Shown here: in pieces, positions 9,664-44,315 of the stretch
Position numbering within the stretch: position 1 is the stretch's first letter
How the letters are laid out: each line of letters starts with the position of its first letter
DNA from: Candidatus Latescibacterota bacterium
GTDB lineage: Bacteria > Latescibacterota > UBA2968 > GCA-2709665
Reading direction: 5' to 3'
Assembly: GCA_965248435.1 (NCBI GenBank)
Contig: OZ252100.1
Coordinates: 4,608,001 to 4,672,000 of the forward strand
Length of the DNA: 64,000 nt
Notes under the pieces: model-generated
What the model was told of the DNA's origin: nothing
Seen by the model: only the letters and a program-made list of their open reading frames with translations
Database searches by the model: none
Translations under genes and position numbers: made by a program

Positions 9664-9682
9664 AGAAAAGAGGCGCTAAGGT

Positions 9683-9800: not shown

Positions 9801-9848
9801 TAGAATGACAAGCCGCGCAGTCTTTCAAATCATGACGAGGAGCTAATT

Positions 9849-15852: not shown

Positions 15853-16031
15853 TCGGAAAAGCTGGATCACTAAAAGACACGAAATCCCACGAAAACACAC
15901 GAAGCCCCACCTCCCCCGCATACTTATGAGCTGATTGCGATTCACGATCGACGAACGACGCAATCGGAATATAGGAAGGAAGAGCAAAAAGTTTACTGAA
16001 GGGCGAATTGACTCGCTGCGTACCTACCGAA

Positions 16032-16104
16032 GCCGCCTTAGCTCAACCGGTAGAGCAACGGATTTGTAATCCGTAGGTTGGGGGTTCGAGTCCCCTGGGC
16101 GGCT
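16032..16104 (+). tRNA. tRNA-Thr(UGU), CCA not encoded
   Basis: GCCGCCT/GGGCGGC acceptor stem, D-arm GCTC..GAGC, anticodon arm ACGGA-TTTGTAA-TCCGT, T-arm GGGGG-TTCGAGT-CCCCT. Confidence 0.95.
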
Positions 16105-23322: not shown

Positions 23323-24696
23323 GTGGATTCCGGAGCTCGGCTCACGTCGGCCAGGTGGACACCATTCTTCCGGTTTGGCCGCGGTGTAGAAACCGATAAG
23401 GAGACCGTCTTGGAGCGATTCAGCAGCATTGCCTCCGCTGCTTTGATCGTGCTTCTAGTATGCAGCGTTGCGGTGTCCGCTGAGCCTGCGGCCGAGACGG
23501 TGACGGTTCAGCTCAAGTGGTCCCACCACTTCCAATTCGCAGGCTTCTACGCCGCCGTGGAGAAGGGCTTCTATGCCGAGGAAGGGCTGGAGGTCACACT
23601 CAGGGAACGAGATTCAGAGAAGAGCCACATCCAGTCGGTCCTCCATGGAGAAGCCCAGTACGGTGTGGCAGATGCCGGGCTGCTCTTGGACTATCTGCAG
23701 GGAGAGGACGTTGTCCTCCTCAAACAGATCTTTCAGCACTCGCCCCTGGTTCTGCTCTCACTGAAGAATTCGGGTATTGCGGCTGCGCACGATCTGGTGG
23801 GCCGGACGGTGATGGTGGATATCGAAGGTCGCAGCAGCGCCCCGATTCTGGCTATGCTGCTCAACACGATGGGCGACATTGGCCAGGTCCAGTTTGTGCC
23901 GCAGTCGTTCAGTCTGGAGGACCTGACCTCCGGCGGATTCGACCCTGATGCCGTGCGCTTCGATCCGGCGTCGGTCCTAGTAGTGGATGACGTGGAAGCC
24001 AACCGTCAACTGGTGAGCGCGTTCCTCTCGCCCTACGGTCTTGCCGTGATGGAAGCGGCAGACGGTGAGGAAGGTGTGGAGCAGACCCGGACGCATCGTC
24101 CGAACCTGGTTCTGATGGATATCCGCATGTCGGGGATGGACGGGCTGACCGCCACGCGTGTGCTGAAGGAAGATGGTGAGACAGCGGACATCCCGATCGT
24201 GGCCCTGACGGCGTCCGTGATGAAAGAGGACGAGGACGAGATCCGGGAAGGCTTCGACGGGTTCCTTCGGAAGCCTGTCAACCGTGCGGCGTTGATGGCT
24301 GAACTGGCGCGCTTCCTTCCCCACGAGATGAAGGAGACCCTCAGCCCGGAGCCTGCAGTGCCGACCGAAGAAGCGTGGGAGCCCGGACTCCTGGATGAGG
24401 CGTCGTTGACGAAGCTGACCGGTCTCGTGGAAGCGCTCGAGTCCGACGTTCTACCGGTCTGGGAGGGCGTTCGGGGAACCGCCAACGTGACGGCTGTGGA
24501 GGAGTTCGCGGAGCTGTTGGCGCGGGTGGTGGACGGGACGCTGTTCCCTCCGCTCCAGAGCTGGACGGAGAAGCTGAAGGGACAGGCGGCTGGCTTCCAA
24601 ATGGATCTCCTGCCGCAGACACTCGAGGAGTTTCCGAATCTGGTCGCCGATCTGAAGCAGATCGCGACGGCAGGCGCCCGGAAGCTTGAAGCATGA
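23323..24696 (+). CDS. chimeric NMT1/THI5-like binding-domain fragment fused to REC + C-terminal helical domain (deletion derivative of a hybrid kinase)
   Basis: QLKWSHHFQFAGFYAAVEKGFY..IFQHSP N-terminus joined directly to a REC nearly identical to 27429-28150; start codon uncertain. Confidence 0.75.
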   Translation: MDSGARLTSARWTPFFRFGRGVETDKETVLERFSSIASAALIVLLVCSVAVSAEPAAETVTVQLKWSHHFQFAGFYAAVEKGFYAEEGLEVTLRERDSEKSHIQSVLHGEAQYGVADAGLLLDYLQGEDVVLLKQIFQHSPLVLLSLKNSGIAAAHDLVGRTVMVDIEGRSSAPILAMLLNTMGDIGQVQFVPQSFSLEDLTSGGFDPDAVRFDPASVLVVDDVEANRQLVSAFLSPYGLAVMEAADGEEGVEQTRTHRPNLVLMDIRMSGMDGLTATRVLKEDGETADIPIVALTASVMKEDEDEIREGFDGFLRKPVNRAALMAELARFLPHEMKETLSPEPAVPTEEAWEPGLLDEASLTKLTGLVEALESDVLPVWEGVRGTANVTAVEEFAELLARVVDGTLFPPLQSWTEKLKGQAAGFQMDLLPQTLEEFPNLVADLKQIATAGARKLEA

Positions 24697-24773
24697 CCGG
24701 ACTTCCGAGTCGGCTCCGTCAACAGGATGCCGGTTTGACACAACCCAGCGAGTCTGTTTAACACTCTGGAGGA

Positions 24774-27700
24774 ATGGGTAGGGTGAGGAACTTCGTGCCA
24801 ATACACAGAAACCTGCCGATGAGCCTGTGCATCATTCTACGGCACCTGAGTCTTGCCTCGCTTGCGTTGCTAGGCACAAGGGGACTCGCCGATGCGCAGT
24901 CGCCGTCACCGGTCCAGGTGAAAGGCGCGTACGTTCTCAATTTCCTGAAGTACGTCGAATGGAAAGACGAGGGTTCGGTGTCTCGCTTTGTTGTGGGCAT
25001 GTACGGAGAGGACGAGGCACTCTACCGCGAGCTTTCCACGGCACTTCCCAAGATGAAGGCAAAACAGAAGGGAATCCAGGTCGTACAGGTGTCGGATATC
25101 GAGCAGGCGAAGTCGGTGCATCTGCTGATGGTGGCCGGGTCTGAAAACACCGACATCAGAGCGATCGCAAATGGCGTTCGCCGCACGAATACGCTGCTGG
25201 TGACAGACAACTGCGGCGACAAGCAGTCGATCATGATCAACCTCACCGCCTTCGGAGGGGATCGGATTGGGTTCGAAGTCAACAAACCCAACATCGTGTA
25301 CGAGGGGCTGAAACTATCTCCGGACATCCTGTTCCTGGGGGGTACCGAACTGGATGTGGCCGAGCTCTACCGCGAAATGGAGGCCTCCCTTCAGAATACA
25401 CGGGAAACGGTAGGGGTTCAGCAAGCCGAACTGGAGAGACAGCGAGACGAAATTGAGGAGCGAGGTCGAGAGATTGAGACTCAGAACGCCCGCCTGGCGA
25501 AACAGAACCGTGAGATCGAGGAGAAGCAAGCGTTGTTGGGTAGCCTTGAGAAGCGGCTCGCGGATGAACGTTCTGTGCTCAGAGCGAACCAGAGCCGAAT
25601 GGAGGCGTATGAATCTGAACTGAGGTCCAAGCTGAATACGCTGGCGGCGAGAGAGATCCAGGTGGAAACCCTGGCCGCTGAGATCAATGCCAACAGGGAG
25701 GTGCTTGAGAAGCAGAGGGGGCAGATTAGCGCCCAGGCGGAGCAGATCGAACAGCAGCAAGAGAACCTGGAGACACAGGACTCGACCATACAAAGACAGG
25801 AAGCGCTGCTACTGGGCGGAGGCATCATCCTGCTTCTGGTGATAACTCTGGGTGGGGTGATCTCCTGGGGCTACAGGCTTAACCGAAAGACTTCCGCAGC
25901 GCTCAGGCAGAGCGAGGCCGACTTCAGATCCCTCGTCCTCAACACTCCCGGGGTCGTCTACCGCTGTGCCCTGGATGAGCACTGGACCATGATGTACATG
26001 AGCGACCGCATCGAGGACCTTTCTGGTTATCCCAGCTCAGACTTCATCGGAAACGAAGCGCGTTCTTTCGCAAGCATCATTGCTCCTGAAGATGTGGAGA
26101 TGGTCGATCGCGTCGTCCAGGAAGGGGTCGAGCGGAGGCAGCCCTACATCATAGAGTATCGCATTCAACACCGGGATGGTTCTCTGCGATGGGTCTATGA
26201 ACAGGGAAGCGCCGTGTTCGAGGAGAAAGGGGATGTCAGTTATCTGGACGGTTTCATCATGGACATCACGGAGCGTAAGGAGAAGGATCGGTTTCTGCGG
26301 TTTGCGACGCACGCCATGGACAATAGCGCGGATATCGCGCTCTGGCTCGACGCTGATACTGCGCAGTTACGATTCGTCAACAAGGCTGCGTGCGAGCAGC
26401 TTGGGTATACCAAAGAAGAACTCCTCGAACTCACCATTCCCGACATCGACCCGTTGTTCCCCCAAGAGCGGTGGCCGGCATTCTCTAGTTCCCTCCGCGA
26501 ACAGGGCTTCATGCAGTTCGAGACGCAACAGCAAAGAAAAAACGGGGAGATCTATCCGGCCGAGGTGACGGTCAGTTCGGTGGACTTCGAACGGGTAACT
26601 TACTTCATATCCTTCTCCCGTGACATTACAGACCGCAAGAAGGCCGATGCAGAGCTTCTTGCCGCGAAAGAGGCGGCTGATGAGGCCAACAGCGCCAAGA
26701 GCATGTTTCTTGCCAACATGTCGCACGAGATCCGCACGCCCATGAACGCCGTGCTTGGATTCTCAGAAGTGCTGCGCACACTCGTCAAGGGAGAGCAGGA
26801 GAAGCAGTATCTGGATTCTATCCAGTCGAGCGGGAAGGCCTTGCTTGGATTGATCAACGACATCCTGGATCTGTCGAAGGTGGAGGCCGGCAAGCTCGAG
26901 CTGGAATACGCGGCCGTGGACGCGCCCGCGGTGTTCCAGGATATGGAGGCCGTGTTCGGCCAGCGCATGGACGAGAAAGGGCTCACCTTCATCCTCGATC
27001 TGGATCCGGACCTGCGTAAGGCGCTGATCCTGGACGAGGTGAGGCTGCGCCAGGTCCTGATCAACCTGATCGGCAACGCGATCAAGTTCACGGAGGAGGG
27101 GCACGTCCGGCTGGCCGCTGCGGCCGTCTCGGAACGAGAAACCGGCAGCCGGATGGATCTTATGATCTCAGTCGAGGATACGGGGATCGGGATCCCGGAG
27201 GATCAGCAGGGAAAGATCTTCGGGGCGTTCGAGCAGACGGTGGGACAGAGCCATATCCGCTTCGGAGGAACGGGTCTGGGGCTGGCGATCACCAAGAGAC
27301 TGGTCGAATTGATGGGCGGTGAGATTTCCGTCGAAAGCCAGGTGGGCAAGGGAAGCACGTTCCACATTCGGCTGAAACATGTGGCCGTCGCTTCGGTGGA
27401 CGATTTGGCAGAGACGGACACGGGCATAGACCCGGATGCCTTGCAGTTCGATCCAGCGTCGGTCTTAGTCGTGGATGACGTGGAAGCCAACCGTCAACTG
27501 GTGAGCGCGTTCCTCTCGCCCTACGGTCTTGCCGTGATGGAAGCGGCGGACGGTGAGGAAGGTGTGGAGCAGACCCGGGCGCATCGTCCGAACCTGGTTC
27601 TGATGGATATCCGCATGTCGGGGATGGACGGGCTGACCGCGACGCGTGTGCTGAAGGAAGATGGTGAGACAGCGGACATCCCGATCGTGGCCCTGACGGC

Positions 27701-28193
27701 ATCCGTGATGAAGGAGGACGAGGACGAGATCCGGGAGAGCTTCGACGGCTTCCTCCGGAAGCCTGTCAACCGTGCGGCATTGATGGCTGAGCTGGCGCGC
27801 TTCCTTCCGCACGAGACGGCGGCGTCGATCAGTCCGGAGCCTGCCGCGTCCCCAGCGGCAGAAGTGTGGCAGCCGGAGGATCTGGATGGAGAATCGCTCG
27901 CGAAGCTGTCCGCTCTGGTGGACGTGCTGGAGTCCGACGTTCGGCCGGTCTGGGAGGGCGTTCGGGGAACCGCCAACGTGTCGGCTGTGGAGGAGTTCGC
28001 GGAGCTGTTGGGGCGGGTGGTGGACGGGACGCTGTTCCCTCCGCTCCAGAGCTGGACGGAGAAGCTGAAGGGACAGGCGGGTACCTTTCAGATGGACCTC
28101 CTGCCGCAAACCCTCGAGGAGTTCCCGGATCTGGTCGAGAATCTGAAGCAGGTCACAACACACACGACGGCAAAGGAGAAGCACGAAGGATGA
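24774..28193 (+). CDS. YfiR/DUF4154-domain hybrid histidine kinase (YfiR-coiled coil-TM-PAS-PAS-HisKA-HATPase-REC)
   Basis: VKGAYVLNFLKYVEW, LLVTD, MINL, IGFEVN..GLKLSPDIL YfiR; FLANMSHEIRTPMN; NAIKFT; GGTGLGL; LMDIRM; start uncertain. Confidence 0.9.
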   Translation: MGRVRNFVPIHRNLPMSLCIILRHLSLASLALLGTRGLADAQSPSPVQVKGAYVLNFLKYVEWKDEGSVSRFVVGMYGEDEALYRELSTALPKMKAKQKGIQVVQVSDIEQAKSVHLLMVAGSENTDIRAIANGVRRTNTLLVTDNCGDKQSIMINLTAFGGDRIGFEVNKPNIVYEGLKLSPDILFLGGTELDVAELYREMEASLQNTRETVGVQQAELERQRDEIEERGREIETQNARLAKQNREIEEKQALLGSLEKRLADERSVLRANQSRMEAYESELRSKLNTLAAREIQVETLAAEINANREVLEKQRGQISAQAEQIEQQQENLETQDSTIQRQEALLLGGGIILLLVITLGGVISWGYRLNRKTSAALRQSEADFRSLVLNTPGVVYRCALDEHWTMMYMSDRIEDLSGYPSSDFIGNEARSFASIIAPEDVEMVDRVVQEGVERRQPYIIEYRIQHRDGSLRWVYEQGSAVFEEKGDVSYLDGFIMDITERKEKDRFLRFATHAMDNSADIALWLDADTAQLRFVNKAACEQLGYTKEELLELTIPDIDPLFPQERWPAFSSSLREQGFMQFETQQQRKNGEIYPAEVTVSSVDFERVTYFISFSRDITDRKKADAELLAAKEAADEANSAKSMFLANMSHEIRTPMNAVLGFSEVLRTLVKGEQEKQYLDSIQSSGKALLGLINDILDLSKVEAGKLELEYAAVDAPAVFQDMEAVFGQRMDEKGLTFILDLDPDLRKALILDEVRLRQVLINLIGNAIKFTEEGHVRLAAAAVSERETGSRMDLMISVEDTGIGIPEDQQGKIFGAFEQTVGQSHIRFGGTGLGLAITKRLVELMGGEISVESQVGKGSTFHIRLKHVAVASVDDLAETDTGIDPDALQFDPASVLVVDDVEANRQLVSAFLSPYGLAVMEAADGEEGVEQTRAHRPNLVLMDIRMSGMDGLTATRVLKEDGETADIPIVALTASVMKEDEDEIRESFDGFLRKPVNRAALMAELARFLPHETAASISPEPAASPAAEVWQPEDLDGESLAKLSALVDVLESDVRPVWEGVRGTANVSAVEEFAELLGRVVDGTLFPPLQSWTEKLKGQAGTFQMDLLPQTLEEFPDLVENLKQVTTHTTAKEKHEG

Positions 28194-28283
28194 CGTTCCG
28201 TCGGGATACTCTGTATTCGGGAAGCACGAAACGTGTGTAGAGCTTCCTGAGAGCGTTCGACACACACAACGCGGAGATAGCTG

Positions 28284-31187
28284 GTGCAGACGCCCGAAAA
28301 ATCGATGATTGACATCCTGTGGATGCTGGTTGCAGCGGGTCTGGTGTTCCTGATGCAGGCGGGTTTCACGTGTCTGGAGTCCGGACTGACCCGGGCGAAG
28401 AACAGCATCAATGTGGCGGTCAAGAACCTGACCGACGTGACAATCTGTATCGTGCTGTTCTGGGCGTACGGATTCGCCCTGATGTTCGGGCAGAGCGCGG
28501 GTGGATGGATCGGGCTCACCGGCTTCTTTGCCCCAGTGGACGAAAGGACGGGTTGGCTGGGTGCGTTCTTTCTCTACGAAGCAGTCTTCTGTGGCACCGC
28601 CGTGACCATCATCTCCGGGGCTGTGGCGGAACGTATGCGATTCAAGGCCTACATTATCGTCGCCGTGGTTGTCTCGTCTCTGGTCTACCCGATCTACGGC
28701 CACTGGGCGTGGGGAGGAACCTTTCAGGGAACATCCGGTTGGCTCAAAGCCCTCGGCTTCGTCGACTTCGCGGGTTCGACCGTAGTCCACAGCCTTGGAG
28801 GCTGGATCGCCCTGGTCCTTGTGATCATCATCGGACCCCGGCGGGGTCGCTTCGGCCCGGACGGTCTGCCGCGGGAGATCGAGGGAGCCAACCTGTCGAT
28901 GTCGGTGCTGGGCGTACTAATCCTGTGGTTCGGCTGGTTCGGATTTAACGGCGGGGGTCTGTTCGGGATGAGCGAAAGGGTGCCTGGTATTCTGGCAAAC
29001 ACCTTCCTGGCGGGTGCCTCGGGTGCCATCGCCTCGCTGTCCCTTGGATGGTACGTCAAGGGACAGTCACAGGTTCGGGAGCTCATCAATGGCGTTCTGG
29101 CGGGACTCGTCGCGATCACGGCCAGCTGCCACGCCGTGAGTCCCAAGATGGCCGTACTGATTGGGGCGGTCGGCGGTGTGACGATGCTTGGGGTGAGCCA
29201 TCTGCTCGTCCGTCTTCGGGTTGACGACGCCGTAGACGCCGTGGGCGTCCACCTGGGGGCGGGGTTGTGGGGTACGCTGGCGGTCGGTTTATTCGGTGAC
29301 CTCGAACGTCTCGCCACGGGACTCACTCGCACCGAACAGATTGGCGTGCAGCTGCTCGGGGCGCTGGTCTGCGCCGTCTTAGCCTTTTGTTTCGGATCGA
29401 TCGTGTTCCGTCTGATCAACCGGTTCTACCCGTACCGCGTCACGCCCGAAGAAGAAGACCTCGGCCTCAATGTGTCCGAGCACGGTGCGGCTACGGCACT
29501 GCTCGACATGTATGAAGCGATGGACGAGCAGGCAGCGGCGGGCGACGTGTCGATGCGCCTTCCCGTGGACCCCTTCTCCGAGGCGGGCGGGATCGCGATG
29601 CACTACAACCGGGTGATGAGCGGGCTTGAGAAGACGCGGAAGGAGCTCATCAACGCGAAAGAGGCAGCCGAGCGAAGTGCGCGCGAGGCCGAGGCTGCCA
29701 ATCAGTCGAAGAGCGTCTTCCTTGCAAACGTGTCCCATGAAATCCGAACGCCGATGAATGCGATTCTGGGCTTCGCCGAGATCTTGAGCGGCCGCCTTCC
29801 TAACGAGCAGGATCGGGAGTACCTGGACTCAATCCAGGCGTCAGGGAAGTCGCTTCTCAGCATGATCAACGACATTCTCGACCTGTCCAAAGTCGAGGCC
29901 GGAAGGACTGAAGCCTTTCTCGCTCCGGTCGAGGCACATACCGTGCTGTGGGACATGGAGACCCTCTTCCGACCGGGGGCGGAAGAAAAGGGACTCGCCT
30001 TTCACGTCGAGATCGATGACGCGCTGCCCGAGGTGATGCTTCTGGACGAGGCGCTCCTCCGCCAGACGCTGCAGAACCTGATCGACAATGCGATCAAGTT
30101 CACGCACCAGGGCTACGTGAGGGTCCTGGCGAAGCCGGTCTTTGCTTCCGCTGACGACTCGCAGCTGGACCTGGTTCTAACGGTCGCCGACAGCGGCATC
30201 GGGATCGCGGAAGACCAGCGTGAAGAGATTTTCGGGACATTCAGCCAGCAGAGGGACCATGACGTGAACGTGTATAGGGGCGCCGGCCTCGGGCTGGCGA
30301 TCACCAAACGGACCGTGGAAGTGATGGGGGGCGAGATCAGGCTGACGAGCGAGGTCGGGAAAGGGAGCACGTTTACGGTCAAGATCGGAGACGTAAACGT
30401 TGCCGCTGTGCAGGATCTGGCTGCGCCGGACGAAGAGATCGATGCGAATGTCATCCGCTTTGGGCGATCGACCGTCCTTGTCGCGGACGATATCTCCGCC
30501 AATCGTCTTCTCGTGAAAGGTTACCTCGAAGAATCGCCCCTGACCGTCCTGGAAGCCGAGGATGGCTCAAAGGCGCTGGAGATGACCCGGAGGGAGCGGC
30601 CCGACCTCATCCTGATGGACATCAAGATGCCCGTACTTGACGGGTTCAAGGCCACGAGGATGCTCAAGGCGGATCCAGAACTCAGACAGATCCCTGTCAT
30701 CGCACTGACAGCGTCCGTGATGCGGGAATCAGAGGCCGAGGTCAGGGAGATCAGTGACGGCTATCTCCGAAAGCCCGTCAGTCGAGCGGACCTGATTCGC
30801 GAGCTGGTCAAGTACCTACCTCATTCATTAGATGTCGAGGAGCCCGACGCGCCCACCTCAACGCCGGAACCGGAGTCGGCGTGGTCAGGCGAGTCGCTGG
30901 ACGGGGCGACGATCGAGCGGTTGCGCAGTCTGGCGGAAGCGATTGATGCAGAACTGCACCCGGCCTGGGAAAGCGTACGAGCAGGGGCCAACGTGACGGC
31001 CGTGGAAGCCTTCGCAGATCAGGTCGAGTCGCTGATGGCGGGGTGCAGCTACCCTCCCCTGTCCGATTGGACGAAGGCGCTGAAGGCACAGGCCAGGACG
31101 TTTCAGGTGGATCTTCTTCCCCAGACACTCCACCGCTTCCCGGATCTCGTGGAGGAAATGCGGGCGTTGGGCGGAGGTGGTGCATAA
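28284..31187 (+). CDS. ammonium transporter (Amt) fused to hybrid histidine kinase
   Basis: MQAGF..LESG, SGAVAER, HWAWGG, DFAGSTVVH, WFGFN, DDAVDA..VH; then SHEIRTPMN, NAIKFT, GAGLGL, LMDIKMP. Confidence 0.93.
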   Translation: MQTPEKSMIDILWMLVAAGLVFLMQAGFTCLESGLTRAKNSINVAVKNLTDVTICIVLFWAYGFALMFGQSAGGWIGLTGFFAPVDERTGWLGAFFLYEAVFCGTAVTIISGAVAERMRFKAYIIVAVVVSSLVYPIYGHWAWGGTFQGTSGWLKALGFVDFAGSTVVHSLGGWIALVLVIIIGPRRGRFGPDGLPREIEGANLSMSVLGVLILWFGWFGFNGGGLFGMSERVPGILANTFLAGASGAIASLSLGWYVKGQSQVRELINGVLAGLVAITASCHAVSPKMAVLIGAVGGVTMLGVSHLLVRLRVDDAVDAVGVHLGAGLWGTLAVGLFGDLERLATGLTRTEQIGVQLLGALVCAVLAFCFGSIVFRLINRFYPYRVTPEEEDLGLNVSEHGAATALLDMYEAMDEQAAAGDVSMRLPVDPFSEAGGIAMHYNRVMSGLEKTRKELINAKEAAERSAREAEAANQSKSVFLANVSHEIRTPMNAILGFAEILSGRLPNEQDREYLDSIQASGKSLLSMINDILDLSKVEAGRTEAFLAPVEAHTVLWDMETLFRPGAEEKGLAFHVEIDDALPEVMLLDEALLRQTLQNLIDNAIKFTHQGYVRVLAKPVFASADDSQLDLVLTVADSGIGIAEDQREEIFGTFSQQRDHDVNVYRGAGLGLAITKRTVEVMGGEIRLTSEVGKGSTFTVKIGDVNVAAVQDLAAPDEEIDANVIRFGRSTVLVADDISANRLLVKGYLEESPLTVLEAEDGSKALEMTRRERPDLILMDIKMPVLDGFKATRMLKADPELRQIPVIALTASVMRESEAEVREISDGYLRKPVSRADLIRELVKYLPHSLDVEEPDAPTSTPEPESAWSGESLDGATIERLRSLAEAIDAELHPAWESVRAGANVTAVEAFADQVESLMAGCSYPPLSDWTKALKAQARTFQVDLLPQTLHRFPDLVEEMRALGGGGA

Positions 31188-31216
31188 AGACGGAGCGTGA
31201 GGAGTCTGGAGCATCT

Positions 31217-33343
31217 GTGAAATCGAAAACGATAAAAAAATCAACAGTTAGTATCGCTTGCTTATTCATCCTGACAGATTTCATGCCTTCGTTGGCGGCA
31301 GAATCAGACGATTCACTCAAGGTGGATCAAATGTATAGTCTGAGCTTGGAACAACTGATGCAGGTCCGCGTTGTAACCGCCTCCAGGCGAACTCAAAGGA
31401 TTAGTGAGGCCCCCTCTATCATTTCAGCTTTTGGCCGGCAGGACATCGACAACATGTCGGTGACCTCCCTCATTGACGTGATTAAACACGCACCAGGCAT
31501 AGAAACGAGCATGGATCCCGATGGTCATTGGCGGGTCTCCATTCGCGGGGTGCGCAAAGATGGCAATATATTGCTGTTGATTGATGGTCAGCCCTTCAAT
31601 GACTTCTACGATGGGCGTGCACTGTTTGACTTGCCCACTGAATTTATCGATAGAATTGAAATTATCCGTGGGCCTGGCTCAGCCTTGTATGGCACCAATG
31701 CAGTGGCTGGCATTATTAATGTCTTTACCATACAAGAACAAAATAGAGCCAGCCTCAGTATTGGCAATAACACCACCTACAGAACAAGTTTCAGCCACCA
31801 CACAGAATTCGGCAATGAGGCCATCCTGTCGATTAGTGTTGGTGCCTCTGATACCGATGGCGCCAATGTCACCGATGACCAGGACTCTGCTGACGGCTTC
31901 GGTCTCGATACAGGCACCACCAACCGTCACAAAAGGGAACTCTTTTTAACCACTGCCTACAGCCAAAACAATCTCAAACTGTCATTAATGGGATTTAGAC
32001 AGCGACGAGGTCCCTGGGCCGGCCCCCAATTTCAATGGGGCCCAGAAACGAGAGTAGATAAAAGTCAGTACTACTTAAGATTCATTTATCGATTTGAACC
32101 GAGTGAATCACTAAGCATTACCCCCAGAATTCATTTGGATGTCACCGATCATGATGCACTCAATGAAGATGTGGCAGCCGGTCGTACTCTATTGGGCAAT
32201 ACATTCACCGAAAGCGGTTTCACCAGAGAAAGCTACAAAACTCTCAATATTGGCACAGAAATCCTGGCTGAATACTCCCATAATGAAAATACCTTCTTGT
32301 TGGGCGGTTTTGGCTTTGAAAACACGAAAATGACCAACTTTGACCTACAGAGAAACTATCGAGTAATTGGCTTTATCCCCAGAGCGAATTTTGGGAATCA
32401 CGACAACTTAACCTTTGAACAAAACAACCAAGATAGACAAATCTACGCCGTTTTTGGGCAAGCTGAATTTCAATGGAGAGCTTTGTCGTTTACTCTAGGA
32501 ACCAGATTGGATCACTATAGTAGCTTCGGTAACAGCGTCAATCCACGATTGGGTCTGGTTTATCATGCCAGCGAAAAGCTGCGTATTAAAGCACTGTTTG
32601 GCTCTGCCTTCAGAGCGCCAACCTTCAAAGAACTCTACGACAATACCCGAATTGGGGCTGAAGGAATCCGTGGAAATAATGACCTTAAGCCGGAAGAAAG
32701 CCAGAGTTTTGAACTCGCACTTGAATATCAATCAAATTCGTATCTATTGAAACTAAATCTGTACGATACCCGTAATGGTAATGTGATAGGAAGCTTTGAT
32801 CCCAGTGGAGGAGGCGCTAGAGCCACGACAGAAAATATCGGAGATATAGATATTAAAGGTGCAGAGGTCGAAGTCACTTTCCAATTGTCAGACTCCGGTC
32901 AGATGTTTTTCAACCTGGCTCGTTACCGTTCGTATTTCAACTGGAGTTCTGGCAGCTTGTTCGACAATCAGAGACGTTTCCTTGCAGGAAGAGGCCAAAA
33001 CGAACTATTCAACCAACCAAGGACCCGGGCTAATCTTGGATTAACCTTGTCTGGCAACAACTGGAAACTTTTCGCAAGCCTTAACTATGGCGGCAAAGCG
33101 AGTAATAACAGTACGTCTCCCATTGCAAGCTTGCGGAATCTGGAAGTCGATGCATACGTGCATTTTAGTGCCAGTATTCGTTATCAGTTTAACTCTAAGC
33201 TTGGTATCAAATTTGCCGCCAACAATCTCGGTGATGAGAAAAATTCGGATCCGGAAGGTTTCGAACAAAGTGAAAATTTCGGCTTTAAGGGCATTTTGCA
33301 ACCTGATGAAAGCTATATGCTGACGCTCGATTACCGATTTTAG
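31217..33343 (+). CDS. TonB-dependent outer-membrane receptor
   Basis: LSLEQLMQVRVVTASR, plug IDRIEIIRGPGSALYGTNAVAGIIN, AFRAPTF..LY, LKPEES, terminal YRF; lower GC than flanks. Confidence 0.92.
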   Translation: MKSKTIKKSTVSIACLFILTDFMPSLAAESDDSLKVDQMYSLSLEQLMQVRVVTASRRTQRISEAPSIISAFGRQDIDNMSVTSLIDVIKHAPGIETSMDPDGHWRVSIRGVRKDGNILLLIDGQPFNDFYDGRALFDLPTEFIDRIEIIRGPGSALYGTNAVAGIINVFTIQEQNRASLSIGNNTTYRTSFSHHTEFGNEAILSISVGASDTDGANVTDDQDSADGFGLDTGTTNRHKRELFLTTAYSQNNLKLSLMGFRQRRGPWAGPQFQWGPETRVDKSQYYLRFIYRFEPSESLSITPRIHLDVTDHDALNEDVAAGRTLLGNTFTESGFTRESYKTLNIGTEILAEYSHNENTFLLGGFGFENTKMTNFDLQRNYRVIGFIPRANFGNHDNLTFEQNNQDRQIYAVFGQAEFQWRALSFTLGTRLDHYSSFGNSVNPRLGLVYHASEKLRIKALFGSAFRAPTFKELYDNTRIGAEGIRGNNDLKPEESQSFELALEYQSNSYLLKLNLYDTRNGNVIGSFDPSGGGARATTENIGDIDIKGAEVEVTFQLSDSGQMFFNLARYRSYFNWSSGSLFDNQRRFLAGRGQNELFNQPRTRANLGLTLSGNNWKLFASLNYGGKASNNSTSPIASLRNLEVDAYVHFSASIRYQFNSKLGIKFAANNLGDEKNSDPEGFEQSENFGFKGILQPDESYMLTLDYRF

Positions 33344-33425
33344 CGACTAACTGAGCGGAGGAACCCTCCGGCTTTGCAGGGGTCATGACTAAACATAAAC
33401 GGCACAACAGAACGGAGAAGAGCTC

Positions 33426-34208
33426 GTGAATGCACCCTTTGTGAAAGTGTTACTGACCTTTGCTCTGAGTATAGCACTCGTTGCGTGTGACAATACTGTT
33501 AATAGACCTGAAACCTCCGACATTGTCATAGGCTTTACTAACGTTCCACTAGACGCTCAGAGAGATGTAATAAGAAACGAAGAAGCTGCTCTTGGTAACC
33601 TTATCACTGATGCGATGCTTGCCTATGTAGTAGGCCTGGGAGAGCCCATCGACGGCGTACTAATAAACGGTGGAGGCATTCGTTACAATATTCAACGGCA
33701 TCCAGACGGCATTTATCCCGCTGGAGAGTTAACCGAGGATGATATCAAAGAAATGCTCCCCTTTGGCAATACTGGATTTATTGTACAAATGACAGGCAGT
33801 GAATTGAAATCGACGTTAGAGCGGAGTGTTCATGCCCTACCTGTACTCGAAGGAAGCTTCGGCACCGGTGCATTTTTGCAAGTTTCCGCCAACTTCAGGA
33901 TTATCGTAGACCTTGATCAGGCTGCTCAGGTTCTAAATGAGCTCGATGCAGAAACCACTATAGCTTCTCCAGGTGGACGAATAGTTAGCGTTCTGATTAA
34001 TGGACAACAATTAAGCCCAGATGAGAGCTATCAGATTTTCCTGCCTTCCTTTATTGCCTCAGGGGAGGATGGTTACCTGGCTGTAGGCGCAATACCTGAT
34101 AACGACAAAAAAGATCTGGGTCTTGATCTTGCCGTTCCGCTCGCGAGCTATTTTCGCAGTCAAGAAATCGTGACGCCTATCATTGAAGGAAGAATCATCA
34201 TTAATTGA
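33426..34208 (+). CDS. lipoprotein with stand-alone 5'-nucleotidase C-terminal (substrate-binding) domain
   Basis: Lipobox LVAC; RNEEAALGNLITDAM, NGGGIR, LPFGN, FLQVS, GEDGY, EGRI; no metallophosphoesterase domain. Confidence 0.85.
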   Translation: MNAPFVKVLLTFALSIALVACDNTVNRPETSDIVIGFTNVPLDAQRDVIRNEEAALGNLITDAMLAYVVGLGEPIDGVLINGGGIRYNIQRHPDGIYPAGELTEDDIKEMLPFGNTGFIVQMTGSELKSTLERSVHALPVLEGSFGTGAFLQVSANFRIIVDLDQAAQVLNELDAETTIASPGGRIVSVLINGQQLSPDESYQIFLPSFIASGEDGYLAVGAIPDNDKKDLGLDLAVPLASYFRSQEIVTPIIEGRIIIN

Positions 34209-34434
34209 TCCTGACACAGGAGACACAGTCATTGTGGATCGGCTCGAACAAACGGAATGGCCCGTTGAATTCTTGGATGTTTTTGGCTCGGGTCCAGATC
34301 TTGACGTCTTGCAATTGTGTGCTTCGTGACAGACATCCAGCTCTGCCGGACACCCTCGATCAGCTTCCGGCACTGACGGATCAGATCGCAGCACTTGTGG
34401 ATACGGATAGGAAAAGTACTCCGGAGGAGATGGC

Positions 34435-36360
34435 ATGAGCGCAACGGACGGTGCACACATCCTGATTGTCGACGACACCCTGAAGAACATCCAGCTGCTG
34501 GGCACCATCCTCCGCGAACGCAATTACCAGATCAGTGTTGCCCAGAACGGCAAGCAGGCACTGCAGATCGCGGGGGGGGATGCCGCGTTGCCGGATCTGA
34601 TCCTTCTCGATGTGATGATGCCCGAGATGGACGGGTTCGAGACGTGTGAACGGCTGAAGGCCGACCCGAAGACGAGAGATATACCGGTTATTTTTCTGAC
34701 GGCCAGGGTGGAGTCGGACGACATCGTTCGCGGCTTCGAGCTCGGCGCGGTGGACTACGTCACGAAGCCGTTCAACCAAGTCGAGCTTCTTCGACGGGTG
34801 AGCACACACTTGGAGCTGAAAGCGGCACGGGAGGCGGCCATCGCCGCAAACCGGGCGAAGTCCGCCTTCCTGGCAAATATGTCACACGAGATCCGGACGC
34901 CAATGAACAGCATTCTCGGGTTTGCGGAAATCCTGAACAGCATTGTCGAGGATACCCAGGCCAGAGAATACCTCAATTCCATCCAGGCCAGCGGCAGAAC
35001 TCTGCTCACCCTAATCAACGACATCCTGGATCTTTCGAAGGTGGAAGCCGGGAAGCTTGACATGGAATACACGGCGGTGAACGTCCGCTCGGTGTTTTAC
35101 GATATGTCGCAGGTTTTCGCTCAGAAGGTCGATGAGATAGGTCTCGAATTCAGGTCCGACATCCATCCGGACCTGCCCGAAGCGCTGATGCTGGACGAAG
35201 TGCGCCTGCGGCAGTGCCTGATCAACCTCATCGGCAATGCGGTCAAGTTCACAGACGAGGGGCATATCACATTGTCGGTCCGGAGCGAGGCTTCAGAGTG
35301 CGTGAACCGGGTAGACCTGCACATTGTCGTGGAAGATACCGGCATCGGGATACCGGCAGATCAGATCGACAGGATTTTCGAGGCATTCGAGCAGACCGTC
35401 GGGCAGAGCTACACGAAGTATGGGGGAACGGGTCTTGGGCTGGGGATTGTGAAAGGGCTGGTGGAGATGATGAATGGGGAAATCATGGTGGAGAGCGAAG
35501 AAGGTGAGGGGAGCACCTTCCGGATCACGCTCAGGGAGGTGGCGCTGGCATCGGCAGATGATCTGGATACTGAGAAGGAAAGCGCGGTTGATACAGACTC
35601 CGTGAGCTTTGCTCCGGCCACGGTTCTGGTCACCGACGATGTGGCGGACAATCGCAACCTGGTGATAGGATATCTGCAGGGGTATGATCTGGCCGTGCTG
35701 GAGGCGGAGAACGGGGCAGAGGCCGTGCAAGCGGCGCGGAGGCATCGTCCGGATCTGGTGATTATGGATATTAAGATGCCGGTGATGGATGGGTTCAAGG
35801 CGACTCGGATACTGAAGGCGGATGCGGAGCTGCGAGCCATCCCGGTGATCGCAGTGACCGCATCGGGGATGGGGGAATCCAAGCAGCAGGTCAGTCAGGC
35901 GTTTGACGGTTACTTAATAAAGCCAGTTAGCAGAGGTGAGTTGATTGCCGCATTAGCGCAATTCCTGCACCACACCAAGGTTGAGTCGGATTCCGAGCCT
36001 GCGGAATCGCCAGTCACGGTGGACGCCGTGGACACGTGGTCGCCTGAATCTATGGATGCTGACACTGTGGCACGTCTACCAGGTCTGGTGGAAATTCTGG
36101 AAGGTGAGCAACAAGCCACCTGGGAAGGTCTGCGCGGCGCCCTGGTGATAGACAAGCTGGAAACGTTTGCGGATCGGATCCGAAAACTTGGTGAGGAATA
36201 CGGGTATCCTCCGCTGGCGTCGTGGGGAGAACGGCTGATGCAGCAGGCAGAGATGTTTGACCTTGATGGGCTGCCAAAGACGCTGGAGGGATTCCCGAAC
36301 ATGATCGGGGAGATCCAGGCGCTTGTGGCGGAAGGACGGGTGGCAGGGGATAGCACGTAG
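34435..36360 (+). CDS. cytoplasmic hybrid kinase REC-HisKA-HATPase-REC
   Basis: LLDVMMP, FLANMSHEIRTPMN, NAVKFT, GGTGLGL, IMDIKMP. Confidence 0.92.
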   Translation: MSATDGAHILIVDDTLKNIQLLGTILRERNYQISVAQNGKQALQIAGGDAALPDLILLDVMMPEMDGFETCERLKADPKTRDIPVIFLTARVESDDIVRGFELGAVDYVTKPFNQVELLRRVSTHLELKAAREAAIAANRAKSAFLANMSHEIRTPMNSILGFAEILNSIVEDTQAREYLNSIQASGRTLLTLINDILDLSKVEAGKLDMEYTAVNVRSVFYDMSQVFAQKVDEIGLEFRSDIHPDLPEALMLDEVRLRQCLINLIGNAVKFTDEGHITLSVRSEASECVNRVDLHIVVEDTGIGIPADQIDRIFEAFEQTVGQSYTKYGGTGLGLGIVKGLVEMMNGEIMVESEEGEGSTFRITLREVALASADDLDTEKESAVDTDSVSFAPATVLVTDDVADNRNLVIGYLQGYDLAVLEAENGAEAVQAARRHRPDLVIMDIKMPVMDGFKATRILKADAELRAIPVIAVTASGMGESKQQVSQAFDGYLIKPVSRGELIAALAQFLHHTKVESDSEPAESPVTVDAVDTWSPESMDADTVARLPGLVEILEGEQQATWEGLRGALVIDKLETFADRIRKLGEEYGYPPLASWGERLMQQAEMFDLDGLPKTLEGFPNMIGEIQALVAEGRVAGDST

Positions 36361-36454
36361 AAGGGCATTGAGCGGAGTCCACCAGGGCCGGTTGCGAAGG
36401 TTTGTGAACGTACGGAGGGAACTGATGAACGAGGTCTATCCAGGAGATGAAGCT

Positions 36455-37447
36455 ATGGAAGCACAAAACGCGGACCCACAGATTCTGATTGTGGACGACA
36501 CCCCCAAGAACCTCCAAGTGCTGGGAACAGTGCTGAAAAAGGAAGGTTACAGCATTATTGTTGCTCAAAACGGGCTGCAGGCTCTGGAAGCCACTGAGAA
36601 AGTGCCTCCGGACTTGATCCTGCTGGACGTGATGATGCCGGAACTGGACGGGTTCGAGACGTGCAAACGGCTCAAGGAGAACCCGGAAACCCGGGAGATT
36701 CCCGTCATCTTCCTGACGGCGAGAATCGAAACAGAAGACATCGTCAAAGGGTTCGATTTTGGGGCGGTGGATTACGTGACGAAGCCGTTCAATGCCACGG
36801 AACTGCTGGCTCGATGCAGAACGCATCTGACGCTGCGGAGGCTGCAACTGCACCTGGGGCAACTTGTGGACGAACGGACCCGGGAGCTGCAGCTGGCCGT
36901 GGCGGCATTGAGGGGACGCGATGCCCTCTTGAAGCACATGCTCTACCTGCACAAGCCGGAGGAGACGCTGGGCATGGCGGTGAAGCTGGCGCTAGAACTG
37001 TGCGGCTGCGAAACAGGAGCGCTGTACACGCTGGATACGGACGGACGCATGGTGCTGAGGACAGCCGTGGGGTTCCAGCAACCCGGCGTGCCGGTGGAAG
37101 ATCCGGGCAGCCTGGGGCTGGAGGGGGCCGACGAAGCGACGTTCACGGAAGCCATAGAGAACCTGAAGCCGTCGCTGACGCAAGATCCGAGTGCCGCTCG
37201 GAGAAGGTTCGACATCCACAGCTTCGGAGTGCTGCCGATATGCCGGGGAGAGGAACTTCTCGCCCTGCTGGAGTTGGGGCGGAATCGGCAGAACGCGCTG
37301 GTGGAAGCGGTCCAGCTGGAAGCGCTCGAGGAGTTTCTCCCCTACGTGGTCATGGCCGTCGTAGACTGCAGGCTGCAGGAAGAGGTGCCGGACTGGAGCG
37401 GGGACGTGGATGAGATTTTGAGGGAGACGGACGAGTGGACGGAGTGA
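36455..37447 (+). CDS. response regulator with C-terminal GAF-like domain
   Basis: IVDD..LLDVMMP..KPF REC; CETGALY..SFGVLPI..LLALLEL GAF-like segment. Confidence 0.8.
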   Translation: MEAQNADPQILIVDDTPKNLQVLGTVLKKEGYSIIVAQNGLQALEATEKVPPDLILLDVMMPELDGFETCKRLKENPETREIPVIFLTARIETEDIVKGFDFGAVDYVTKPFNATELLARCRTHLTLRRLQLHLGQLVDERTRELQLAVAALRGRDALLKHMLYLHKPEETLGMAVKLALELCGCETGALYTLDTDGRMVLRTAVGFQQPGVPVEDPGSLGLEGADEATFTEAIENLKPSLTQDPSAARRRFDIHSFGVLPICRGEELLALLELGRNRQNALVEAVQLEALEEFLPYVVMAVVDCRLQEEVPDWSGDVDEILRETDEWTE

Positions 37448-40270: not shown

Positions 40271-40290
40271 GAGGCAAGGAGGCCGGTGCT

Positions 40291-41430
40291 ATGGACGAGC
40301 TGAACAGAGGTCTGCTGATCCTCATCGTAGACGACACCCCCAGGAACCTCCAGGTGCTGGGAACTATGCTGAGAAAGGAAGGCTACAGCATTATTCTTGC
40401 TCAAAACGGGCTTCAGGCTCTGGAAGCCACTGAGAAAGCGCCTCCGGACCTGATCCTGCTGGACGTGATGATGCCGGAACTGGACGGGTTCGAGACGTGC
40501 AAACGGCTCAAGGAGAACCCGGCAACCCGGGAGATTCCCGTCATCTTCCTGACGGCGAGAATCGAAACAGAAGACATCGTCAAAGGGTTCGAACTGGGGG
40601 CGGTGGATTACGTGACCAAGCCGTTCAACGCCACGGAACTGCTGGTGAGGGTCGGTTCCCATCTGGCGCGAATCCTGTTGCAGCGGGCGCTTGCGGAGCG
40701 TATGGAGGAGATCGCACGGATGAAAAGGGAGCACGAAGCCTTCCTGCGCCACGAGCTTAAGAACCGAATTACGCCCATTCTAGGCTATTCAGAACAGCTC
40801 TCACAGTTGGGTGGGGACAAGCTGAGCGATTACGAGCAGGAATGGTTGGCCGCCATCTTTGAGGGTGCCAAGAACGTGGTAGGGCTTATCAACGCGATGA
40901 AGCAGTTGCAGGACTTCGAAGCGGGCAAGTTCCAGCTTAATAAACGCCGCATCGGGCTGGGGATGCTTGTCAAACAGGTCATCGCAGACCTGAAGACTGT
41001 GTATGGGAACCTGGTGGAGATCTGCTGCGAGGATAAGCTGACGAATGAATCTGTGGAGGCAGATGAGAACCTTCTGATCGGGGTGTTTCAGAATCTAGTC
41101 AAGAATGGTGTCGAACACATTATGGAACAGGAAGACGACACAGAACGACGGACGGACGTTCGGCTTTACAATGAGAACGGGTATGTCGTCGTGGAGGTCA
41201 ACAACGGCGGGGAACCCATCCCTGCCGAGAGATTGGGGTCGTTCTTTGAGAAGTTCAACACGGATAAGAAAGGGAAACACGGAACGGGGCTTGGGACAAC
41301 GTATGCCTATCTCGTGACCAGGGCCCACGTCGGCGAGATTTCGGTGACATCCAACGAAGCAGACGGCACCACGGTGACGGTAAGACTGCCACAGGCTCGC
41401 GGAGGAGAGGATGCAGGAGGCGCGATATGA
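40291..41430 (+). CDS. REC-histidine kinase
   Basis: REC nearly identical to that of 36455; LRHELKN, NLVKNG.EH, NNGG, GTGLG. Confidence 0.88.
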   Translation: MDELNRGLLILIVDDTPRNLQVLGTMLRKEGYSIILAQNGLQALEATEKAPPDLILLDVMMPELDGFETCKRLKENPATREIPVIFLTARIETEDIVKGFELGAVDYVTKPFNATELLVRVGSHLARILLQRALAERMEEIARMKREHEAFLRHELKNRITPILGYSEQLSQLGGDKLSDYEQEWLAAIFEGAKNVVGLINAMKQLQDFEAGKFQLNKRRIGLGMLVKQVIADLKTVYGNLVEICCEDKLTNESVEADENLLIGVFQNLVKNGVEHIMEQEDDTERRTDVRLYNENGYVVVEVNNGGEPIPAERLGSFFEKFNTDKKGKHGTGLGTTYAYLVTRAHVGEISVTSNEADGTTVTVRLPQARGGEDAGGAI

Positions 41431-41559: not shown

Positions 41560-41874
41560 GTCAATGAAATCATGGCAAAGCTCTGTAATTAGGGCTTTGC
41601 CTTTTCTGTTGCGGGGGAATCAATCTGAAGGAAGCTTTGACTGGACAGACTGTCCTCCCAAAGTTCAGCTCTGGGTCTCCATAAAGTCTCCATCGAAATG
41701 TACAAACCGGTTGTATTGCATTTTCCTTGATTTAATTTCATTAAAGTCATATCCTTTTGGGCATCAGCGAGTTGTGGATAAACTTGTTGCAGCCCAATGA
41801 GTTACATAATCCTTCAGAGTGGATTTGTAATCCGTAGGTTGGGGGTTCGAGTCCCCTGGGCGGCTTTAAAACAC

Positions 41875-42919: not shown

Positions 42920-42990
42920 AGACTCCAGGGATTTTCGTTCGAAAGAATCAGGGCCTTCACTCTTTTGTGAAGGCCCTACTTGTATGTCCC

Positions 42991-43027
42991 TCTAAGCGGG
43001 TGGAAAGCATGACCTCATGAATGCCAT
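42991..43027 (-). pseudogene. degenerate tRNA-Ala(GGC) 3' fragment (att relic)
   Basis: Reverse complement ATGGCATTCATGAGGTCATGCTTTCCACCCGCTTAG resembles the tRNA-Ala(GGC) anticodon-to-T-arm region; a shorter version at ~17239-17261. Confidence 0.5.
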
Positions 43028-44303: not shown

Positions 44304-44315
44304 CGGAGGTCGGCC

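Follow-up and report, generated by a model that had tools for sequence, protein, structure and literature searches.

A candidate trans-envelope sensing locus in a Latescibacterota bacterium: a TonB-dependent receptor and a 5'-nucleotidase C-domain lipoprotein near a YfiR-headed hybrid kinase

TonB-dependent receptors (TBDRs) are importers, and those of the FecA class also signal to sigma factors. In FecA-FecR-FecI, an inner-membrane protein that extends through the periplasm senses whether the TonB receptor is occupied. YfiR, in turn, is the repressor of one diguanylate cyclase. In the YfiBNR system (TpbB/DgcN) of Pseudomonas aeruginosa and Escherichia coli, YfiB is a lipoprotein that sequesters YfiR, and the periplasmic domain of YfiN is now classed as CHASE8 (excerpt of PMC8085984). 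The locus described here lies in a stretch of 64,000 nucleotides (nt), hereafter the window, of Candidatus Latescibacterota bacterium (GCA_965248435.1, contig OZ252100.1, positions 4,608,001-4,672,000 of the forward strand; host genome 97.5% complete, GC content 0.566). It holds a hybrid sensor kinase with a periplasmic DUF4154 (YfiR-like) head and, nearby, a receptor (TBDR1) followed by a lipoprotein made only of the C-terminal domain of 5'-nucleotidases; the last two genes are together called the cassette. By analogy with the systems above, the locus is somewhat probably a YfiBNR/FecAR-like trans-envelope relay for a nucleotide-like ligand. Coordinates are positions in the window, and domains come from a Pfam scan of plus-strand open reading frames (ORFs; 11 window proteins). 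The features that carry the argument are:

24774..28193, + strand: DUF4154 hybrid sensor kinase, 1139 amino acids (aa) (Pfam, translation, AlphaFold2, Foldseek)
24915..25337, + strand: DUF4154 (YfiR-like) head of the kinase, residues 48-188 (Pfam E 4.5e-24, Foldseek)
25347..25808, + strand: predicted proline-free periplasmic helical stalk, residues ~192-345, ~154 aa (AlphaFold2 single helix, 0 Pro)
25809..25877, + strand: transmembrane segment, residues ~346-368 (first hydrophobic 19-mer after the head; AlphaFold2)
31217..33343, + strand: TonB-dependent receptor TBDR1, 708 aa (Pfam Plug and barrel; the ORF spans 31043-33343)
31340..31372, + strand: receptor N-terminal motif LSLEQLMQVRV, shortly after the signal peptide, its end overlapping the TonB-box-like VRVVTAS
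33426..34208, + strand: lipoprotein consisting of the 5'-nucleotidase C-terminal domain only, 260 aa (Pfam, lipobox)

The original prediction, made from the letters of the window, had recognized a TonB receptor followed by a lipoprotein built solely of the 5'-nucleotidase substrate-binding domain, and both Pfam and the lipobox agree. The lipoprotein matches 5_nucleotid_C (PF02872) alone, over residues 34-218 (E 4.3e-30), and carries a signal peptide with the lipobox L-V-A-C at Cys21 and Asp at +2. Its AlphaFold2 model reaches a mean predicted local distance difference test score (pLDDT) of 91.4 and is matched by Foldseek to the C-domains of 2z1a, CD73, and UshA. A protein search with the lipoprotein returned about 40 clusters of 218-272-aa proteins with 5_nucleotid_C only (E 1e-86 to 1e-38), beyond which scores fall sharply to 1e-21, and the profile of this family finds the C-terminal domains of both the T. 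thermophilus 5'-nucleotidase (E 3.5e-34) and human CD73 (E 1.3e-31). In CD73, R354 and R395 bind the phosphate and ribose of the ligand, the ribose hydroxyls are held by D506, and the adenine is sandwiched by F417 and F500 (excerpt of PMC7508162). When matched through the family-profile alignment (chain index plus 3), lipoprotein residues R50, R86, F113, F209, and D215 align with CD73 R354, R395, F417, F500, and D506, respectively. The counterparts of R354, R395, F417, and D506 are invariant in 28/28 aligned family members, as is the lipobox Cys, and the counterpart of F500 (F209) is kept in at least 90%. The lipoprotein thus resembles the ecto-5'-nucleotidases (CD73, 2Z1A, UshA) in its C-domain fold and in its base-stacking and ribose/phosphate-binding residues, and differs from them in its lipid anchor and TonB receptor partner and in that the dimetal catalytic N-domain is missing altogether, so that hydrolysis is not expected. 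The simplest reading of the sequence is that it is a non-catalytic nucleoside or nucleotide binder. By analogy, it most likely serves the receptor as a ligand-capturing accessory for a nucleotide-like molecule. In the BtuB-BtuG and SusC-SusD pairs of Bacteroidetes, a receptor gene is likewise followed by the gene of a ligand-binding lipoprotein, though the fold there is a beta-propeller or TPR rather than a 5'-nucleotidase C-domain.

Alternatively, the lipoprotein might work with a separately encoded metallophosphatase, the two hydrolyzing nucleotides at the surface or in the periplasm as a split 5'-nucleotidase. Many 5_nucleotid_C proteins in the databases are fused to Metallophos, which makes a split form plausible in principle, and adjacent gene pairs for a metallophosphatase and a C-domain exist in Bacteroidetes. 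However, no Metallophos domain was found among the neighboring ORFs given to Pfam (12 and 11 ORFs in two sets of loci, and 36 of the 91 ORFs listed in a third), a profile of 25 5'-nucleotidase N-domains has no match at E <= 1e-3 among the ORFs of the host genome, and the conserved neighbor is a TonB receptor, not a phosphatase. The lipoprotein is also the only 5_nucleotid_C match in the host genome. On these grounds the split enzyme, which the original prediction had named as a possible refutation of its own reading, was rejected as highly improbable.

Receptor and lipoprotein recur together across genomes. Besides the window, 14 further distinct loci of the lipoprotein family were collected (L001, L002, L081, with which L082 is identical, L085, and L193-L202). 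Scans with whole-family alignments settled on a motif general to 5'-nucleotidases, so that full-length enzymes dominated, and yielded as family members L001 and L002 of 80 loci and L081, L082, and L085 of 80; clade-specific alignments recovered loci better (L193-L202), and a single-protein scan gave nothing. A TBDR gene lies directly upstream of the lipoprotein gene on the same strand in 14/14 evaluable loci, with gaps of -4 to 270 nt, the contig of L199 starting at the lipoprotein and so leaving its upstream side not evaluable. TBDR1 itself most likely starts at GTG 31217, which is preceded by GGAG and opens a signal peptide ending ...SLAA/ESDD, and it comprises a Plug (PF07715), a TonB-dependent barrel (PF00593), and the TonB-box-like N-terminus VRVVTAS. 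It is orthologous over its full length to the receptors found upstream of the lipoprotein at other loci (58% identity in L001, 37% in L002, and 37% in L081), and its family comprises about 27 full-length clusters at 50% identity. In pairwise comparisons of loci, receptor identity rises and falls with lipoprotein identity (r = 0.90 for 55 pairs from 11 loci), a value that is descriptive only since the pairs are not independent. Judged by gene order and sequence, receptor and lipoprotein form one conserved two-gene unit. At L194, in a Bacteroidota genome, two solo 5_nucleotid_C lipoproteins stand in tandem (8986-9735 and 9788-10537) between the receptor and the DUF4154 gene.

The unit is frequently accompanied by a DUF4154 gene; the original prediction had counted it as a refutation if the three genes did not co-occur elsewhere. 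DUF4154 is found in the same locus as the lipoprotein in 12/15 loci, the window counted. A free-standing DUF4154 protein of 170-184 aa is encoded behind the cassette, in the same orientation, in 10/10 Bacteroidota loci (a short ORF of 134 aa in L199, and cut by the contig end in L201), and in 8/10 the next gene encodes a CHASE8(-HAMP)-HisKA-HATPase(-REC-Hpt) kinase. The two without it are L199, where an opposite-strand gyrB follows instead, and L201, whose contig ends too early. Among all 12 loci that hold DUF4154, the CHASE8 kinase follows in 9. L081/L082 and L202 have a second receptor between lipoprotein and DUF4154, which aligns full-length with the receptor of another DUF4154 locus (L165, described below) at 49% identity. 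The DUF4154 context of L085, a 1.9-kb contig, is not evaluable. Because the periplasmic domain of YfiN is a CHASE8 domain, the Bacteroidota operon amounts to a YfiR/YfiN-like pair with kinase output, in which, by analogy, the TonB receptor and lipoprotein would stand where YfiB would be. The cassette being in line with DUF4154 and usually with a kinase, the receptor-lipoprotein pair is tied to signaling at the level of the family. Cobalamin riboswitches precede a 726-734-aa ORF in L195 (2391-2591) and L197 (2394-2588), about 4 kb upstream of the cassette and separated from it by an opposite-strand gene; this ORF may be an unrelated B12 uptake gene. In L198, a Flavo-1 small RNA match (360-442; 79 bits) lies upstream of a helicase gene beside the cassette locus.

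Compared with YfiBNR, the window and the Bacteroidota operons share the periplasmic YfiR fold and a component of the outer membrane by which the YfiR-like part could be sequestered, and the Bacteroidota operons as well as L165 also have an inner-membrane CHASE8-HAMP partner homologous to the sensor of YfiN. They differ in that the output is a hybrid histidine kinase rather than a GGDEF cyclase, and the outer-membrane partner is a TonB receptor with a lipoprotein rather than the OmpA/Pal-like YfiB; in the window, moreover, a 154-aa stalk joins the YfiR fold and the kinase in one protein, and CHASE8 is absent. Consistent with this, Pfam found no GGDEF domain at the locus, no CHASE8 region in the window kinase, and no OmpA-type (YfiB-like) domain in the 11 window proteins, the sole recognized lipoprotein of which is the 5_nucleotid_C protein.

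DUF4154 genes accompany TonB receptors more widely. The host genome has three DUF4154 genes, all of them near a TBDR (3/3). At L165 the order is receptor, Amt-PAS kinase, REC-HATPase, free DUF4154, CHASE8 kinase, kinase; at L166 a receptor is directly followed by a fused DUF4154-PAS kinase. Across the phylum, DUF4154 occurs in 34/168 genomes, and a TBDR was present within the fetched 16 kb at 12/20 DUF4154 loci, a sample from 8 genomes picked for long contigs and not a random draw. The fused kinases of at least 600 aa among these 20 loci (L241, L244, and L249) have a receptor directly upstream in 3/3 cases; a counter-example is a fused kinase of Pleionea without a receptor within 8 kb. NCBIfam already names a TOL_0244 family TonB-dependent receptor (NF053590), a TOL_0243 family YfiR-like periplasmic protein (NF053591), and a 'sensor histidine kinase, YfiR-like protein-associated' (NF053592). 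The existence of models for all three indicates that the grouping of receptor, YfiR-like protein, and kinase has been catalogued by name, and the model names imply the same logic as proposed here; the trio consists of curated names only, without the lipoprotein and without the fused form. The DUF4154 protein of L195 passes NF053591 (126.3 against a cut-off of 125), and those of L082 (124.4) and L165 (111.6) fall short. The CHASE8 kinase of L165 passes NF053592 (205.8 against 194), its next match being DgcN/YfiN, and the L195 kinase reaches 163. Against the YfiR equivalog NF053586, the free DUF4154 proteins score 36.6-43.5 bits under a cut-off of 85. No functional study of the receptor/YfiR-like/kinase grouping was found in the literature, and the publications on YfiR together with TonB-dependent receptors include, by their titles, none on such a system. 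The only paper found to name TOL_0244 reports its sevenfold induction on the n-C28 alkane (excerpt of PMC6304351).

An element common to the receptors of these loci suggests where a YfiR-like domain might act. The motif (L/M)S(L/I)xEL...(V/I) lies between the signal peptide and the TonB-box-like segment in 15/15 receptors from lipoprotein or DUF4154 loci. In the host genome, where a profile built for the purpose finds 7 TBDR-like ORFs, it is present in all three receptors at DUF4154 loci, the foreign TBDR1 included, and in 0/4 of the others; since the pattern was derived from these same receptors, only the 0/4 is informative. TBDR1 is only 26-27% identical, over partial alignments, to the two other DUF4154-adjacent receptors of the host, and it matches NF053590 only in its N-terminal part (124.5 bits, under the cut-off of 645). 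The LSLEEL/TonB-box element may be the part read by the YfiR-like head.

The kinase itself is as the original prediction had it, a YfiR/DUF4154 periplasmic domain fused to a PAS-PAS hybrid kinase, in which Pfam and Foldseek concur. Pfam assigns DUF4154 (48-188), PAS_3 (407-494), PAS_9 (531-620), HisKA (641-706), HATPase_c (754-868), and Response_reg (897-1007), followed by a tail. The DUF4154 domain (PF13689) scores 85.6 bits against a cut-off of 24.9. A signal peptide at the start of the protein places this head in the periplasm, and the hydrophobic segment 346-368 is predicted to take the chain back to the cytoplasm. The YfiR-like fold of the head is supported by Foldseek at TM-scores of 0.75-0.80 on the target and root-mean-square deviations of 2.6-2.9 Å, the top 11 listed matches all being YfiR or YfiB-YfiR entries, including 4zhy, 4yn9, 6ikk, and 5eb1. 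Its best NCBIfam match is the TOL_0243 YfiR-like family (NF053591; 76.5 bits, under the cut-off of 125), and it has no match to the YfiR equivalog NF053586 (cut-off 85) at E <= 1e-8.

In the AlphaFold2 model of the periplasmic part, which was built on a 5-sequence alignment, the alpha/beta head is followed by one unbroken helix (model residues 174-351, protein 192-369, with the transmembrane segment included) at a pLDDT of mostly 82-95. With the 0.15 nm rise per residue of an alpha-helix, the predicted long helical stalk of about 154 residues would measure about 23 nm. The original prediction had called this region a long coiled coil; the long uninterrupted helix is borne out by the model, and the coiled coil is not, as heptad periodicity in the window protein is not significant (z 0.18, with 195/500 shuffles reaching the observed value) in what is a crude test. 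It is therefore named a helical stalk here. The same test on 104 homologues gave a median z of 1.85, with z >2 in 47/104. These homologues, found with kinase residues 30-380, are 104 proteins with DUF4154 fused to kinase modules, except for one in which a PP2C-type phosphatase domain takes the place of the kinase modules; named records come from Colwellia, Thalassotalea, Colwelliaceae, Kangiellaceae, Gemmatimonadetes, and Bacteroidota. The linker between head and first transmembrane segment spans 135-194 aa in 104/104 (median 155; 140-169 aa in 93/104), is free of proline in 104/104, and keeps its length though identity to the query drops to 26-35%, with the reservation that the search scored the stalk region itself and may favor similar linker lengths. 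At 0.15 nm per residue, this range corresponds to 20-29 nm. The distance between the inner and outer membranes of E. coli is of this order. As modeled, the stalk would be long enough to reach the outer membrane. Trans-envelope signaling depends on the inter-membrane distance (excerpt of PMC5736177), and in the RcsF-IgaA system treated there the sensor must likewise span it, so that length matters. The reach in the Rcs system is that of a flexible linker on an outer-membrane lipoprotein (same excerpt), whereas here it would be that of a rigid helical stalk from an inner-membrane kinase. The closest relative of the window kinase, in L249, is 74% identical over head and stalk.

The kinase sits in an array of signaling genes:

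23323..24696, + strand: NMT1/THI5-like and REC protein, directly upstream of the DUF4154 kinase (Pfam)
28284..31187, + strand: Amt-HisKA-HATPase-REC hybrid kinase, 967 aa (Pfam)
34435..36360, + strand: REC-HisKA-HATPase-REC protein (Pfam)
36323..37447, + strand: REC-GAF protein (Pfam)
37514..40270, in line with the kinase genes: FapA protein, 918 aa (Pfam)

The Amt kinase, absent from the original prediction, separates the DUF4154 kinase from the receptor. The two kinases are 50% identical (263/524, BLASTP) over transmitter, REC, and a common tail of about 110 aa without an assigned domain, and Amt-fused hybrid kinases stand at 2/3 DUF4154 loci of the host genome (window 28284-31187; L165 5924-9043). 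Together, this identity and the second Amt kinase suggest that the Amt and DUF4154 kinases may be interchangeable sensors feeding one relay, of which the REC-HisKA-HATPase-REC and REC-GAF products are possible phosphorelay partners. In relatives of the host, the best matches to the Amt kinase are plain Amt genes at about 42% (5 relatives). A promoter and terminator scan gave counts at or below those of shuffled sequences, with no above-chance plus-strand terminator-like site in 23323-37447, and Rfam returned nothing in window 22-38 kb at E <= 1. Paralogous modules of recent origin are numerous in the kinase array: between the REC-GAF and REC-HATPase genes, the REC-coding segments are 91% identical (36452-36751 and 40288-40587), and further REC copies are 76% identical (34591-34776, 36608-36793, and 40444-40629). 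The FapA protein is unusually long, with three FapA_N-matching stretches ahead of its beta-solenoid domain.

Several observations weigh against the proposed relay, and they concern, first, the side of the membrane on which the lipoprotein works. The Asp at +2 is, in E. coli, a mark for retention in the inner membrane. The window lipoprotein is of the proteobacterial type, and no sorting rule applies confidently to the host. In Bacteroidetes, the signal for surface export is C-X-K-(D/E)2 (excerpt of PMC5080379); among 40 members outside the proteobacterial clade (clade A), 12 have it in strict form, 6 in part, and 22 lack it. Surface exposure is therefore doubtful for more than half of the family, which sets the pair apart from BtuB-BtuG and SusC-SusD, as does its wiring to a kinase. 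The missing signal in 22/40 and the Asp at +2 of the window protein fit an account in which the lipoprotein faces the periplasm as YfiB does: the receptor would import the ligand, and the loaded lipoprotein would sequester the YfiR-like head or protein and so switch the kinase. The order of lipoprotein and then DUF4154 gene in 8 Bacteroidota loci favors such a role too, YfiB itself being a lipoprotein that sequesters YfiR and YfiB-YfiR complexes being among the Foldseek matches. Yet groupings of TBDR, DUF4154, and kinase exist without any such lipoprotein (L165, L166, the NCBIfam trio, and the 12/20 sampled loci), a second receptor intervenes between lipoprotein and DUF4154 in L202 and L081, the lipoprotein always comes after the receptor even where DUF4154 is lacking (L002), and 12 members carry the canonical surface-export signal. 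A YfiB-like lipoprotein is on this evidence improbable.

Further objections concern the receptor and the loci that lack the full arrangement. Pfam detects no STN domain, the FecA-type signaling domain, on TBDR1, and only about 20 residues lie between its signal peptide and TonB box. No riboswitch stands directly upstream of the TBDR1-type receptor in 10 loci, so none gives a clue to the ligand. In L002 (Pleionea), there is no DUF4154 within 8 kb of the cassette; in L001, an acetyl-CoA synthetase gene follows, the upstream side is off the contig, and no DUF4154 is adjacent. In both of these proteobacterial cassette genomes, the DUF4154 genes lie elsewhere. Where the cassette does have a DUF4154 partner, this is a free-standing protein with a CHASE8 kinase, unlike the fused kinase of the window, and no second case of the cassette beside a fused DUF4154 kinase was found among the loci collected.

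The cassette also differs from its surroundings in composition and appears to have come from elsewhere. Two further features are needed here:

16031-16105: tRNA-Thr(tgt), followed by a phage-type integrase
31200..34300, no strand: low-GC island coinciding with the receptor-lipoprotein cassette (GC in 300-nt windows, and GC at third codon positions, GC3)

GC drops to 0.41-0.50 in 300-nt windows exactly over 31.2-34.3 kb, compared with 0.56-0.65 in the flanks. The receptor has a GC of 0.453 against 0.566 for the genome, and GC3 is 0.47 in the receptor and 0.39 in the lipoprotein, compared with 0.71-0.76 in the kinase genes; at 0.74, the DUF4154 kinase is native-like. No member of the lipoprotein family was found in 40 relatives, one genome of the same genus included (their best score, 87.7 bits, comes from ORFs of 401-1366 aa, while the window gene scores 339 bits). 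In the class of Pleionea, 1/400 scored genomes has a member, and that one is the Pleionea genome on which the sample was centered. The cassette is thus compositionally foreign and, by the same signs, a horizontally acquired piece beside an apparently native kinase. Searches for repeats flanking the cassette gave short, chance-like matches only.

The surroundings are also rearranged. The 3' end of tRNA-Thr and the integrase are repeated at 96-100% identity 25.8 kb downstream (16060-17493 and 41821-43260), the second integrase copy being split into two ORFs, and the signaling array between these repeats thus appears to be part of a tandem tRNA-Thr genomic island, inside which the cassette is a segment more foreign still. 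Past the right repeat, 43401-45497 encodes a tyrosine recombinase (300 aa) and an IS91-family transposase (Y2_Tnp and zinc-binding domain). The 3' half of the NMT1-REC gene copies REC and tail of the kinase (23941-24240 and 27429-27728, 96% nucleotide identity), with a second copied stretch at 86% (24369-24668 and 27860-28159), and by its sequence goes back to a recent duplication or recombination event immediately 5' of the kinase gene. In relatives of the fused kinase, the gene at this position encodes a TonB receptor other than TBDR1, which is missing in the window. With a kinase-copy gene in its place, the locus has been rearranged just where a receptor is expected.

A foreign cassette inside a recently recombined island could have come to lie beside the kinase as an accident of mosaic assembly. 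It may then serve uptake only, scavenging a nucleotide-like nutrient after landing in a kinase-rich island, and the fused kinase would be an orphan without its own receptor, deaf to the cassette. This is consistent with the foreign GC and GC3, with the tRNA-Thr/integrase repeats that bound the island, with the recent duplication at the place where orthologues of the kinase carry a TBDR, with the Pleionea cassette (L002) that has no DUF4154, and with a receptor that has no signaling domain. It is less easily reconciled with the cassette being in line with DUF4154 in 10/10 Bacteroidota loci and in L081/L082, a kinase following in 9/11, or with TBDR1 carrying the N-terminal motif that is otherwise limited, in the host genome, to DUF4154-linked receptors. 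In addition, a random site falls within 10 kb of one of the three host DUF4154 genes with a probability of about 0.011, so chance adjacency of the cassette to the DUF4154 kinase is unlikely. Uptake alone is thus a fairly unlikely explanation. The outer-membrane-to-cytoplasm relay claimed in the original prediction is supported in part. Family-level co-occurrence, the lack of a metallophosphatase among the ORFs scanned, the retained contact residues, and the conserved stalk of about 23 nm speak for it. At the window itself, the foreign origin of the cassette, the intervening Amt kinase, the lack of another fused-kinase case, and the missing native receptor speak against it.

In the relay that is preferred here, the module would consist of two parts of different origin, an acquired receptor-lipoprotein cassette and a native hybrid kinase. 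The lipoprotein would capture a nucleotide-like ligand for the receptor, as in BtuG/BtuB or SusD/SusC, and loading of the receptor would change its periplasmic N-terminus, where the LSLEEL motif lies beside the TonB box. The YfiR-like head would then bind or release this element. In the free form of the system, the change would be passed on by freeing the CHASE8 kinase, and in the fused form of the window it would run down the stalk to the PAS-kinase core, from which the signal would enter a multi-kinase phosphorelay common with the adjacent Amt kinase. The class of ligand, the side that the lipoprotein faces, and the contact between head and receptor are deductions within this scheme. That the foreign cassette signals to this particular native kinase is likewise deduced, from analogy, the shared receptor motif, and proximity. 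As proposed, the system resembles FecA-FecR-FecI in that receptor occupancy would be passed to a trans-periplasmic inner-membrane protein. It differs in having neither STN nor an anti-sigma/ECF pair (Pfam scans of 19-41 kb of the window found no sigma-factor genes), in its YfiR-fold reader, and in its output through a two-component phosphorelay.

A broader and more tentative proposal, which must be considered rather doubtful at present, is that this is TonB-dependent outer-membrane sensing of extracellular nucleotides or dinucleotides (e.g., ATP/AMP, NAD, or cyclic dinucleotides), in which a dead half-nucleotidase lipoprotein would act through the receptor on a YfiR-fold head carried on a 'ruler' stalk of about 23 nm in more than 100 kinases. 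YfiR-like proteins would then be general readers of TonB-receptor occupancy, with YfiB-YfiR-YfiN as one special case. As far as the searches show, three things are undescribed: a nucleotide-binding lipoprotein as partner of the receptor, a stalk conserved in length among the fused kinases, and a cassette of foreign origin.

Together with the related loci, this one suggests a broader wiring in which YfiR-fold domains would read receptor occupancy and hand the signal on to two-component kinases, one subfamily having a receptor that is also equipped with a predicted non-catalytic nucleotide-binding lipoprotein. In the Latescibacterota bacterium, a foreign sensor cassette appears to have been placed beside a native kinase with the matching type of reader domain. 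If this is true, the cassette would be the first candidate outer-membrane nucleotide sensor or uptake system in bacteria, the widespread DUF4154 genes beside TonB receptors would be assigned a function, and the limits that periplasm width sets on signaling could be tested cleanly on a rigid stalk whose length is conserved.

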